Positions 3,589-5,309 of a DNA stretch of 47,180 bases are shown in pieces (the stretch's first letter is position 1; the number at the start of each line of letters is the position of its first letter). Source of the DNA: Escherichia phage phiEB49. The translations under genes and the position numbers were made by a program. The DNA lies in the sequence record JF770475; one strand, 5' to 3'. The notes beneath the pieces are model-generated. The model was not told the origin of the DNA. It worked only from the letters and a program-made list of their open reading frames with translations, and searched no databases.

Positions 3589-3924
3589 ATGTTCTTACTA
3601 GACGTTTTCAGATTTTGTGAGAGTTATGAGAGGTTTAATCGGCAGCACCTGGCGGTATTCATTTATCGCCACAAGGACTGCGAAAGAATGGCAAAAGCCG
3701 CGGGAGTTACTACACGTTACTTTGCATCATCTGCTTCAAAGGAGTTTTTGGCCAGGTGCATGACTGAAGGTTACATCGATGTGGTTAATGGTAATTACTG
3801 CAGCAAAGGCAGCACAAAGCGACCATTCGGATTCAGCTTCAGGTGCCTTAATGGTGAGAGCGATAAGTACACTAAAGAGATGATGACAATAGGTGAAATG
3901 ACAGACGACCAGCTATTTGCATAA
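3589..3924 (+). CDS. hypothetical protein (111 aa)
   Basis: ORF track; followed by bidirectional terminator. Confidence 0.5.
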   Translation: MFLLDVFRFCESYERFNRQHLAVFIYRHKDCERMAKAAGVTTRYFASSASKEFLARCMTEGYIDVVNGNYCSKGSTKRPFGFSFRCLNGESDKYTKEMMTIGEMTDDQLFA

Positions 3925-3926
3925 AA

Positions 3927-3955
3927 GAAAGGAGCCATTAGGCTCCTTTTTTGTT
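3927..3955. terminator. bidirectional intrinsic terminator between convergent genes
   Basis: AAAGGAGCC-atta-GGCTCC followed by TTTTTTG; A-run on the other side. Confidence 0.6.
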
Positions 3956-4342
3956 TCCTGCAAATCTTAAAGCGAAGTAAGTTAGCAAACCTGAAAATAA
4001 TCCAGCCAGAACTCCCCAGACTAAAGAGTCAACACCAGAATTTTCAGTGCTATGAATTTCGATCTTTTCAGCTGTTATTGTGTTAGCTGAGAGGCCCGTA
4101 GCTGCAGTCTTTTTTTGGCTTGATGAGTCTACATCTCTGTTAGTTGAGTTGCGCATATCGCTTTCTACAGAGCTAGATTTGTCTGTTTGATTTGATAATC
4201 CAATACCTGTCTTCTGGTTAGATTCACCAACCTGAGCCGTTGCCTCGATGCCATCCTTTGCTGGTAACAAATCAGAGATGGCTGACATAGCAGAGCAACC
4301 AGTCAGTAAGGTAATTGCCAGAACTACAACTCCGACACGCAT
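3938..4342 (-). CDS. unimolecular spanin (N-terminal lipoprotein signal, C-terminal TMD)
   Basis: Lipobox LLTGCS near N-terminus, hydrophobic C-terminal helix, last gene of lysis cassette and overlapping endolysin 3' end; architecture of T1 gp11-type u-spanin. Confidence 0.6.
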   Translation of the reverse strand: MRVGVVVLAITLLTGCSAMSAISDLLPAKDGIEATAQVGESNQKTGIGLSNQTDKSSSVESDMRNSTNRDVDSSSQKKTAATGLSANTITAEKIEIHSTENSGVDSLVWGVLAGLFSGLLTYFALRFAGNKKGA

Positions 4343-4809
4343 AGTTTAATCTCCGCTTTACGCCTGTTAACCAGGCCTTTGCTAACAACCTTCTTACCAC
4401 CAACGGTAATTTTATTCCACATGGAGAAAGCGTCACACCCACCACGAATATCACCACGATTCATACGCCTGATAACGGTTGAGTTGCGCATTGCGTTGGT
4501 GCCAATATTGTATGACAAGCTGTATAGTGCAGCCCTGGTGCTAACAGGAACATCAACATTTAGCGCCGAATCTACAGCCTTTTGATGAATAGACAAATGC
4601 TTTTCAAGAAGTGTGTCACACTCGCGCTGTGTGTAAACCTTACCCAGAATAACGTCTGGACCAGTAATTCCCTGGCAGACGGTCCATACCCCAGCCACAT
4701 CCTTGTAAGGCTTATATTCAACCCCTTCATACTTATTCAGGAACGGAACAGCCAAAGCCATAGCACCAGCGACTACTGAGCCTATAATCTTATTCTTAAA
4801 ACTCATCAC
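4324..4809 (-). CDS. SAR endolysin (T4-lysozyme-like muramidase with signal-arrest-release N-terminus)
   Basis: Gly/Ala-rich weakly hydrophobic N-terminus followed by YEG..D..T lysozyme catalytic region; start overlaps holin stop. Confidence 0.75.
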   Translation of the reverse strand: MMSFKNKIIGSVVAGAMALAVPFLNKYEGVEYKPYKDVAGVWTVCQGITGPDVILGKVYTQRECDTLLEKHLSIHQKAVDSALNVDVPVSTRAALYSLSYNIGTNAMRNSTVIRRMNRGDIRGGCDAFSMWNKITVGGKKVVSKGLVNRRKAEIKLCVSEL

Positions 4810-5021
4810 TTGCTCCTTATCCTCATTGCCTCACGGATATCGCCATCCTCAAGTGCCTTATGGAGCGCCTTGCTGTCCATCCAGCGCAGCCATGCGCCAA
4901 AGATACCAAAGCACACGGCTACGATTAAGCCAATAATGCCGATGATTGTATTGTCAGATAAACCGCCGCCCATAGCTACTCCGCTACCGGACAAAGCGGC
5001 TGCGTCATAGAAATGCTTCAT
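4806..5021 (-). CDS. holin (small, pinholin-like)
   Basis: 71 aa, hydrophobic TMD IIGIIGLIVAVCFGIFGAWL and charged C-terminus; immediately upstream of endolysin. Confidence 0.6.
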   Translation of the reverse strand: MKHFYDAAALSGSGVAMGGGLSDNTIIGIIGLIVAVCFGIFGAWLRWMDSKALHKALEDGDIREAMRIRSK

Positions 5022-5044
5022 GTTGCGGCCTCTTTAAGTTAATT

Positions 5045-5062
5045 TGGTTAAATAATACCAGA
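5045..5062 (-). promoter_or_regulatory. putative extended -10 promoter for lysis cassette
   Basis: Minus-strand TGGTATTAT (TGn plus TATTAT) about 30 nt upstream of holin ATG, downstream of a terminator. Confidence 0.3.
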
Positions 5063-5081
5063 CATTACACTTTGACATAAA

Positions 5082-5110
5082 CGAAAAAAGGCAGCCTTAA
5101 AGGCCGCCTG
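5082..5110 (-). terminator. intrinsic terminator (minus strand) upstream of lysis cassette
   Basis: Minus-strand GGCGGCC-tttaa-GGCTGCC followed by TTTTTT. Confidence 0.55.
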
Positions 5111-5135: not shown

Positions 5136-5309
5136 TTAGTCTGCGATAATGAATTCCACCAATTCCCCATCGGTCGGTGCGAAAATCCAGGTCATGTCAT
5201 CGCCATAAATCTTGTAGTTTCCGTCACCCTGGTACTCAGCGCTATACGGATTGTTTACAGTGAACGGCAGAGTTTTTGATTTGTTGCTTACGCAGAATAA
5301 TTTAGTCAT
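5136..5309 (-). CDS. hypothetical protein (57 aa)
   Basis: ORF track 5136..5387 trimmed to ATG 5309, directly after upstream stop. Confidence 0.4.
   Translation of the reverse strand: MTKLFCVSNKSKTLPFTVNNPYSAEYQGDGNYKIYGDDMTWIFAPTDGELVEFIIAD

Follow-up and report, generated by a model that had tools for sequence, protein, structure and literature searches.

The lysis locus and its boundaries

The lysis genes of Escherichia phage phiEB49, a T1-like siphophage (Drexlerviridae, Rogunavirinae), lie on the minus strand as three overlapping ORFs in the order holin, endolysin, spanin (Table 1). The ORF list for the window (the whole analysed stretch of 47,180 nucleotides, sequence record JF770475) placed the 71-aa holin, the endolysin and the 134-aa protein where the original prediction had put them. 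A Shine-Dalgarno-like sequence precedes each of the three starts, and the overlaps, which extend over 19 nt between the endolysin and spanin genes, indicate translational coupling. The endolysin reading frame is open from a GTG at 4809 (4324..4809, 161 aa), but the true start is the ATG at 4806, which is preceded by AAGGAG, overlaps the holin stop codon as ATGA and gives a product of 160 aa.

Table 1. Genes and regulatory features of the phiEB49 lysis locus, listed by decreasing coordinate
Feature	Coordinates	Strand	Evidence
DUF7244 (SH3-clan) gene, 57 aa, T1 gp14 homologue	5136..5309	-	PF23896 E 7.5e-29; 43% identity
Intrinsic terminator, ends the upstream DUF7244/gp14-side unit before the cassette	5083..5109	-	hairpin 5109..5089 followed by TTTTTT
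Candidate extended -10 element, TGGTATTAT	5052..5060	-	30 nt upstream of the holin ATG
Holin, 71 aa, T1 gp13 homologue	4806..5021	-	PHROG 2877 E 2e-35; T1 gp13 37% identity, E 1e-15
Predicted SAR-type endolysin, 160 aa, GH24/T4-lysozyme family, T1 gp12 homologue	4324..4806	-	PF00959 E 1.3e-37
Predicted u-spanin, 134 aa, T1 gp11 family	3938..4342	-	PHROG 1804 E 1.7e-46; T1 gp11 33% identity, E 1e-14
Bidirectional intrinsic terminator	3928..3949	both	minus-strand scan match; loop holds the spanin stop codon

The endolysin and spanin sequences were exact matches to phiEB49 gp8 and gp7, respectively. PHROG profiles returned holin, endolysin and spanin families for the three cassette proteins, and the endolysin also matched Pfam Phage_lysozyme. 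In NCBIfam, neither the holin nor the spanin nor the DUF7244 protein matched a specific family. The genes flanking the cassette are syntenic with T1 genes 16, 14, 10 and 9. The T1-like ancestry put forward earlier holds, because all three cassette proteins are homologous to T1 proteins and the flanking genes are syntenic as well.

A terminator had been predicted at 5082-5110, and an independent scan found it there, with a 9-bp stem containing 6 GC pairs. Its predicted fold (-15.3 kcal/mol, z = -3.9) was not equalled by any of 200 shuffled sequences. A terminator is annotated at the matching site in AKS96, and hairpins with different stem sequences occupy the equivalent position in Rtp, T1, Stevie and RAD2. 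The DUF7244 gene lies upstream of this terminator, outside the interval covered by the original prediction. A recent proposal gives its SH3-clan product an accessory role in the lysis module of Drexlerviridae (PMC13164509).

At the other end of the cassette, the bidirectional terminator sits between the spanin gene and a converging gp10-like gene (3589..3924, plus strand). It folds well in both orientations, at -15.1 kcal/mol (z -4.7) for the minus strand and -17.7 kcal/mol (z -6.3) for the plus strand. In AKS96 and Rogue1 the annotation gives the same element for both strands, and T1 has a counterpart at the equivalent site. This terminator, the DUF7244/SH3 gene and the catalogue listing of the spanin described below had not been part of the original prediction.

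Endolysin and spanin

The best PDB matches of the endolysin were RrrD (4zpu; 48% identity) and R21 (3hde), with E about 1e-38, and R21 3hde was also the best fold match of its AF2 model (TM 0.74). The best solved relatives are SAR endolysins, then, not a cytoplasmic, non-SAR lysozyme. The E-x8-D-x5-T triad (E27, D36, T42) is invariant in the homologue alignment. At the N-terminus, K4 and K6 are followed by IIGSVVAGAMALAVPFL (residues 7-23), a run of 17 uncharged residues whose best 19-residue Kyte-Doolittle mean of 1.61 is borderline. A Gly/Ala-rich SAR N-terminus had been claimed. The basic residues and the uncharged run are there, and Gly, Ala, Ser and Thr make up 41% of the run, compared with 65% of the 23-residue segment of RrrD and 53% in T1 gp12. 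Judged on these features, the segment would fit the SAR type in form, as one of the more hydrophobic and Gly-poor examples. The same design of basic residues and uncharged run is found in the aligned T1 gp12 and in the Stevie protein annotated as a SAR endolysin.

The spanin N-terminus, MRVGVVVLAITLLTGC, satisfies a PROSITE PS51257-style lipoprotein rule through R2 and the lipobox LTGC, with the lipidation candidate Cys16 followed by Ser17. Across 10 homologues, neither Gly15 nor Cys16 varies. There is no Asp at the +2 position, which is the feature expected for outer-membrane sorting. The C-terminal TMD was called from an uncharged run, Kyte-Doolittle hydrophobicity and an AF2 helix, and comprises 20 uncharged residues (106-125, KD19 peak 1.87) followed by the basic RFAGNKKGA. 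Both halves of the claimed architecture, lipobox and C-terminal TMD, were recovered in this way. Downstream of the lipobox there are no further Cys residues, the periplasmic domain is polar, and the gene is the last of the cassette.

In the AF2 model of the spanin, built on a 10-sequence alignment (mean pLDDT 53), the only helices were residues 3-23 and 102-133, the latter with pLDDT 68-85, and residues 24-101 contained none. Since the periplasmic domain was modelled with pLDDT < 50, the structure favours no particular fusion mechanism. The SpaninDB supplement lists phiEB49 under USP, with a 90-residue periplasmic domain of 3.3% helix and 30% strand and without a coiled coil. SpaninDB assigns a protein to a family at 40% identity to a member across 40% of the length; the phiEB49 protein is 43% identical to that of Rtp and 88-96% identical to Rogue1-type members. 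By these sequence measures the product would belong to the T1 gp11 family of unimolecular spanins, in agreement with the T1-type single-component spanin first suggested for this gene, and the literature already places phiEB49 in the T1 u-spanin family (Kongari 2018, Table 5; PMC6139136).

Two other assignments of these proteins have to be considered. A Sec signal peptide cleaved from the endolysin would yield a soluble periplasmic enzyme instead of a tethered one, and the N-terminus has the look of such a signal: K4/K6 could serve as the n-region and IIGSVVAGAM as the h-region, A17-L18-A19 before V20 resembles a signal-peptidase I site, and the segment has a higher mean Kyte-Doolittle hydrophobicity (2.23) and a lower Gly/Ala content than that of RrrD. 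Predictors, however, commonly mistake SAR domains for signal peptides, and a muramidase that was secreted in active form from the start would leave the holin no control over timing. R21 and RrrD, the closest characterised relatives, are SAR endolysins that were crystallised with the N-terminal segment retained, and Drexlerviridae homologues that carry the SAR-endolysin annotation share this N-terminal design. We therefore regard cleavage as improbable and infer SAR behaviour for the endolysin. Still harder to sustain is the idea of the 134-aa protein as an Rz1-type o-spanin in need of a separate i-spanin. It does share an N-terminal lipoprotein signal with Rz1, and it is labelled "putative Rz1 protein" or "Rz-like spanin" in Sf12, Rogue1, AKS96 and RefSeq. 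But it has a C-terminal TMD of its own, SpaninDB classes it as a USP, and the cassette contains no gene for a protein with an N-terminal TMD and a periplasmic coiled coil. Its homologue T1 gp11, the only family member for which outer-membrane disruption is known, complements the lambda RzRz1 lysis defect by itself (PMC6139136). An o-spanin is accordingly very improbable here, and u-spanin is a more accurate label than the imprecise public ones. We also looked for an o- or i-spanin embedded in alternative frames. The sole sizeable ORF (4272..4457, minus strand, 61 aa) was rejected as a gene because it is interrupted by stop codons in Sf12, Rogue1, AKS96 and JK06.

Holin type and candidate promoter

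The holin consists of a weakly hydrophobic, Gly/Ala/Ser-rich segment (residues 7-22), a strong TMD (residues 25-45, KD19 2.56) and a charged C-terminal tail. It had been described as pinholin-like. That it is a holin is borne out by its PHROG family and by its homology to T1 gp13, but BLASTP against the S21-type pinholin EssD of E. coli DLP12 detected no similarity (E 0.2), and no Pfam family, holin families included, or NCBIfam family matched. The holin therefore falls outside the S21 sequence family, and "pinholin" can only be a functional label for it. We propose that it may act as a class II pinholin, from its architecture and its pairing with a predicted SAR endolysin. We found no experimental data on hole size in the literature on T1-type holins.

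For the promoter, an extended -10 element had been predicted upstream of the holin gene. TGGTATTAT does occur, and at a plausible site, but the window contains 3 matches to the pattern TGNTATTAT where 2.1 are expected, so that by itself the match could have arisen by chance. The -35 region is weak, with TTATGT at a spacing of 17 nt or TTTATG at 18 nt and a 3/6 match at best. A two-hexamer promoter scan did not recover TGGTATTAT; its hits fell inside coding regions and were no commoner than in shuffled sequences. The AKS96 annotation has no promoter at this site, though its authors predicted promoters genome-wide. We also considered a conserved motif upstream of the terminator (CATCACCTTAC in T1 and RAD2, AAACATCATGTTGCAAAC in the window) and dropped it because neither version is repeated in the window beyond chance.

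Both the type of holin and the source of its transcripts allow another explanation. The holin could be a canonical large-hole protein, or a single-TMD protein with its N-terminus out and C-terminus in. Residues 25-45 are the only segment at transmembrane-level hydrophobicity, and the N-terminal segment is short for a true TMD1, because it comprises just 16 uncharged residues (KD 1.03) and is separated from TMD2 by two residues (Asp-Asn). The GenBank records of T1 and AKS96 state a single TMD, and the lack of similarity to EssD/S21 points the same way. Nor does the partner enzyme settle the matter, as SAR endolysins function with either holin type, for example in phage P1. u-Spanins likewise occur with both types of holin-endolysin system (Kongari 2018, PMC6139136). 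Set against this, the N-terminal run resembles TMD1 of EssD/S21 in composition (75% Gly/Ala/Ser/Thr, compared with 63% over the 19 residues of EssD TMD1, KD 0.59), and a length of 71 aa with at most two TMDs is the class II pinholin format. Specialist groups have called homologues of this protein pinholins (Stevie record; PMC6139136; PMC11447400; PMC13164509), and for the T1 u-spanin family the cassettes are said to combine a pinholin with a SAR endolysin (PMC6139136). On balance we find a large-hole or single-TMD holin unlikely, if by no means far-fetched, and prefer the pinholin assignment.

A cassette without its own promoter is a somewhat stronger contender, though still the less probable one. 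Here TGGTATTAT would be a chance match, and expression would depend on read-through of the terminator from one or more promoters of the upstream leftward genes. The chance-level count, the poor -35 and the silence of the AKS96 annotation all agree with this. TGGTATTAT is identical in Sf12, AKS96, Rogue1 and JK06, but its conservation within the Rogunavirinae is uninformative because overall identity is about 85%. What speaks against dependence on read-through is that -10 hexamers with 5/6 matches also lie 30-45 nt upstream of the holin ATG, past the terminator, in T1 (TAAAAT) and in Rtp and RAD2 (TATCAT), despite diverged surroundings. In addition, a TG dinucleotide makes up for a weak -35, and the strength of the terminator directly upstream makes a restart of transcription plausible. 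The cassette is thus probably transcribed from its own sigma-70 promoter just past the upstream terminator. Several Drexlerviridae lineages have, ahead of the holin gene, a terminator and then a -10-like element, an arrangement that bears on the timing of lysis-gene expression and on whether the SH3-like neighbour shares the transcription unit of the cassette.

Proposed lysis route and comparison with known systems

We consider it very probable that the cassette works by the pinholin/SAR-endolysin/u-spanin route of T1-family phages. The structure of the genes, their homologies and motifs, the terminators and the synteny come from the present analysis; for the way the proteins sit in the membrane, the release of the SAR helix, the formation of small holes, the activity of the promoter and the mechanism of fusion, the account below draws on relatives and on the literature. 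The three genes would be transcribed leftward as a single unit, from a probable host sigma-70 promoter after the upstream terminator and possibly also by read-through, with the bidirectional terminator as the end point. The lysozyme would be exported by Sec and then held inactive at the inner membrane by its weakly hydrophobic N-terminal SAR helix. Meanwhile the holin would build up in the inner membrane until it triggers at a set time and collapses the proton-motive force. The SAR helix could then leave the bilayer, the enzyme would be expected to refold as R21 does, and the released endolysin would cut the glycan strands of the peptidoglycan through E27, D36 and T42.

The spanin would receive its lipid at Cys16 and, as Ser at +2 predicts, be delivered to the outer membrane, and its C-terminal helix would stay in the inner membrane, so that the protein should bridge the periplasm through the murein mesh. 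Once the murein is removed, nothing would keep it from disrupting the outer membrane, with fusion of the two membranes as the probable mechanism. A more speculative variant, to which we give little credence, is suggested by the weakly hydrophobic TMD with its glycine zipper and by the periplasmic domain, which is of low complexity and disordered-looking: the Rogunavirinae u-spanin might act unlike gp11, for example through TMD-driven oligomerisation or as a releasable, SAR-like anchor. As part of the same variant, the SH3 protein might be an accessory lysis protein that is expressed apart from the cassette, given the conserved terminator.

On its sequence, the locus reads as an ordinary T1-like module of a holin, a membrane-tethered lysozyme and a single-protein spanin. 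This reading is already known, and the spanin is included in a published spanin database. The significance of the present analysis is modest and lies mainly in the correct annotation of the cassette, including an endolysin start fixed at ATG 4806.

Among the Rogunavirinae (Sf12, Rogue1, AKS96, JK06, e4/1c and others), the cassette DNA is 85-89% identical to that of phiEB49, the spanin is 88-96% identical, and the differences are point substitutions only. The upstream regulatory region, with TGGTATTAT and the terminator, differs by no more than a few bases. The homologues in Citrobacter phage Stevie are annotated as pinholin, SAR endolysin and unimolecular spanin.

The resemblance to phage 21 and DLP12 is uneven. 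The endolysin is a true homologue, sharing the catalytic triad, four conserved Cys positions and a SAR-type N-terminus, although its SAR segment is shorter and less Gly/Ala-rich. The holin is alike in size and layout: a protein of 71 aa in which a weakly hydrophobic N-terminal segment is followed by a strong TMD and a charged tail, it has no detectable sequence similarity, and its two segments are joined by a 2-residue loop as opposed to about 10 residues in EssD. Where phiEB49 has a unimolecular spanin, these systems have the two-component Rz/Rz1.

T1 is the closer model. Gene order is identical, the proteins are of nearly the same size (phiEB49/T1: 71/71, 160/162 and 134/133 aa), and the alignment to the T1 lysis proteins proposed earlier gave identities of 37% to gp13, 46% to gp12 and 33% to gp11. 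Both phages have the flanking gp16, gp14, gp10 and gp9 homologues, a terminator upstream of the holin gene, a converging terminator after the spanin gene, and a lipobox of the form xxGC with Ser at +2. They differ mainly in the spanin. Its periplasmic domain is strongly diverged in phiEB49 and rich in Ser, Asn and Asp, and its TMD is far less hydrophobic (KD 1.73 versus 2.97 in gp11) and contains G110xxxG114xxxG118, which gp11 lacks. The overlap between the endolysin and spanin genes is 19 nt in phiEB49 and 1 nt in T1, and the candidate promoter of phiEB49 is of the extended TG type with a weaker -35, whereas that of T1 reads TTGTGT-17-TAAAAT.

Organization of the lysis cassette

On the minus strand of the window, 3938-5110 contains three tightly packed ORFs, with a GC content like that of the window as a whole (45.4% vs 44.0%). 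In a mechanical ORF listing the lysozyme begins at GTG 4809. The region reads AAGGAGcaagtgATGA, so the real start is ATG 4806, which overlaps the holin stop codon. The start of the spanin gene is preceded by GGAG and overlaps the end of the endolysin gene by 19 nt. A 61-aa ORF lying out of frame in this junction (4272-4457, minus strand) was rejected as a conserved gene because it carries stop codons in the related phages Sf12, Rogue1, AKS96 and JK06.

Features of the lysis cassette and its borders (window coordinates)
Feature	Coordinates	Strand	Basis or remark
DUF7244 (SH3-clan) protein, 57 aa	5136-5309	-	T1 gp14 homologue, directly upstream of cassette
Upstream terminator	5109..5089 + TTTTTT	-	Independent terminator scan
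Candidate extended -10, TGGTATTAT	5060..5052	-	30 nt before holin ATG; weak -35
Holin, 71 aa	5021..4806	-	ORF listing
Endolysin (lysozyme), 160 aa	4806..4324	-	ORF listing; start corrected by sequence
Spanin, 134 aa	4342..3938	-	ORF listing
Bidirectional terminator	3928..3949	both	Scan and folding

Exact protein look-up identified the endolysin as phiEB49 gp8 and the 134-aa protein as gp7. The best DNA match to the window in the phage collection was Shigella phage Sf12 (89%), followed among the matches listed by Rogue1-type phages (85-86%), all of them Drexlerviridae of the subfamily Rogunavirinae; the matches listed did not include phiEB49 itself.

The three lysis proteins

The 134-aa protein had been predicted to carry an N-terminal lipobox and a C-terminal transmembrane helix, as in the single-component spanin of phage T1, and both elements were found. 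Its N-terminus, MRVGVVVLAITLLTGC, fits the rule for lipoprotein signals: Cys16 is followed by a Ser at +2. Gly15 and Cys16 do not vary among ten homologues from several Drexlerviridae lineages (Rogunavirinae, Braunvirinae, Tunavirinae, Tempevirinae, Webervirus, Sauletekiovirus) and an Autographiviridae podophage. By hydrophobicity, a C-terminal helix lies at residues 106-125, followed by a basic tail; the structure model also has a helix there (102-133). The protein was assigned to PHROG 1804 (E 1.7e-46) and is 33% identical to T1 gp11 (E 1e-14); tblastn found relatives in 976 phage records. A sequence scan found no periplasmic cysteine, and the periplasmic domain was modeled without confidence (pLDDT below 50). 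The helix contains G110xxxG114xxxG118 (3938-4030, minus strand), with Gly110 nearly invariant across the family alignment. Together with the low hydrophobicity of the segment, this motif could reflect helix-helix oligomerization of the spanin.

Two observations concern relatives of this protein. In Rtp, the annotated spanin CDS (1789-2151) begins just five codons ahead of the lipobox Cys (M-CVALSGC) and thus has no signal-peptide n/h-region; this start was probably mis-called, as reported for u-spanins (Kongari 2018). The Klebsiella podophage KPV811 (Autographiviridae, Drulisvirus) encodes a u-spanin of the T1 gp11 family at 1480-1884, 33% identical to the one in the window. Its gene adjoins a terminase gene, apart from the lysozyme gene, so the family crosses both phage families and cassette layouts.

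The endolysin belongs to Pfam Phage_lysozyme (E 1.3e-37) and is 46% identical to T1 gp12 and 48% identical to RrrD, the SAR endolysin of E. coli DLP12. Its E-x8-D-x5-T catalytic triad (E27, D36, T42) is invariant in eight homologues. At the N-terminus, a stretch of 17 uncharged residues with borderline hydrophobicity (best 19-residue Kyte-Doolittle mean, KD19, 1.61) comes after K4 and K6. With A-L-A preceding V20, this segment could formally be a cleavable signal, a reading opposed by the homology to RrrD and to phage 21 R21. These two proteins, rather than a cytoplasmic non-SAR lysozyme, are the best solved relatives (4zpu and 3hde/3hdf, E about 1e-38), and R21 is the best match of the AlphaFold2 model (pLDDT 79, TM 0.74). 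These relatives support the SAR assignment of the original prediction as the probable one.

The 71-aa holin was assigned to PHROG 2877 'holin' (E 2e-35) and, along its whole length of 71 residues, is 37% identical to T1 gp13; Pfam and NCBIfam searches matched no family. It has a single strongly hydrophobic segment (residues 25-45, KD19 2.56) and a charged C-terminal tail. A 16-residue uncharged run precedes the segment (75% Gly/Ala/Ser/Thr, mean KD 1.03), but this putative TMD1 is short and just two residues from TMD2. Database records give one TMD for relatives in T1 and AKS96, and the protein is not similar in sequence to EssD, a pinholin of the S21 type (E 0.2). "Pinholin" therefore cannot be a claim of membership for this protein, only a putative functional label. 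Large-hole holins can also serve SAR endolysins.

An exact look-up in a collection of 15 billion proteins returned the neighboring endolysin and spanin but not the holin. The gene may be missing from the public record or be annotated there with another start; no alternative in-frame start lies upstream, since a TAA occurs 15 nt upstream. The Opt-79 holin is annotated at 90 aa, against 71 aa elsewhere.

In the model for T1-family phages (PMC6139136, PMC11447400, PMC13164509), the SAR helix would keep the exported endolysin inactive in the inner membrane. Triggering of the holin would depolarize the membrane and free the helix, whereupon the enzyme would refold and degrade the murein. The u-spanin, spanning the periplasm between a lipid anchor in the outer membrane and a helix anchor in the inner membrane, would be released from the murein mesh and disrupt the outer membrane, with membrane fusion as the probable means. 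Replacement of lambda Rz/Rz1 has been shown experimentally only for T1 gp11 (PMC6139136); the rest of the route is extended to phiEB49 by homology.

Terminators and candidate promoter

The terminator predicted at 5082-5110 was recovered independently and is strong (-15.3 kcal/mol, z -3.9). In AKS96 a terminator is annotated at the corresponding site before the holin. Hairpins occupy the same position in T1, Rtp, RAD2 and Stevie with other stem sequences; conservation is thus at the level of structure, not of sequence. The bidirectional terminator, missing from the original prediction, closes the cassette against a converging gp10-like gene.

The proposed extended -10 promoter fared less clearly. 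The motif TGGTATTAT is present, but its three matches in the window do not exceed chance (2.1 expected), a two-hexamer promoter scan missed the site, and the AKS96 annotation has no promoter at this place. T1, Rtp and RAD2 have a 5/6 -10 hexamer after the terminator, 34-45 nt before the holin start, in otherwise diverged sequence; the T1 candidate reads TTGTGT-17-TAAAAT. On these motif comparisons, the phiEB49 promoter is plausible but unproven.

T1 ancestry and place among known systems

The predicted T1-like ancestry is established, beyond mere suggestion. Besides the alignments of the three lysis proteins to T1, flanking genes homologous to T1 gp16 (66% identity), gp14 (43%), gp10 (56%) and gp9 (56%) keep the T1 order and orientation. 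The gp14 homologue, a DUF7244 protein without a signal sequence, has been proposed as an accessory lysis-module protein (2026 paper, PMC13164509). The terminator separating its gene from the holin is conserved in position in T1 and Rtp, which suggests something other than simple co-transcription of this gene with the lysis genes. A terminator precedes the holin in RAD2 and Stevie too, but these phages lack the DUF7244 gene at this place.

The observation was thus confirmed and its interpretation supported; the interpretation is correct and already published. Kongari et al. 2018 include phiEB49 in their 28-member T1 u-spanin family (Table 5), list its 134-aa protein as 'USP' in the supplementary tables, and place all members except J8-65 and Limezero in cassettes with a pinholin and a SAR endolysin (PMC6139136). 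The homologues in Citrobacter phage Stevie are annotated in exactly these terms: pinholin, SAR endolysin and unimolecular spanin. Relative to T1, the phiEB49 spanin has a Ser/Asn/Asp-rich periplasmic domain and a weakly hydrophobic TMD (KD 1.73 vs 2.97 in gp11) with a glycine zipper, whereas gp11 has no glycine motif, and the candidate promoter has an extended -10 where T1 has a better -35. Judged by sequence, these differences are variations within the family.
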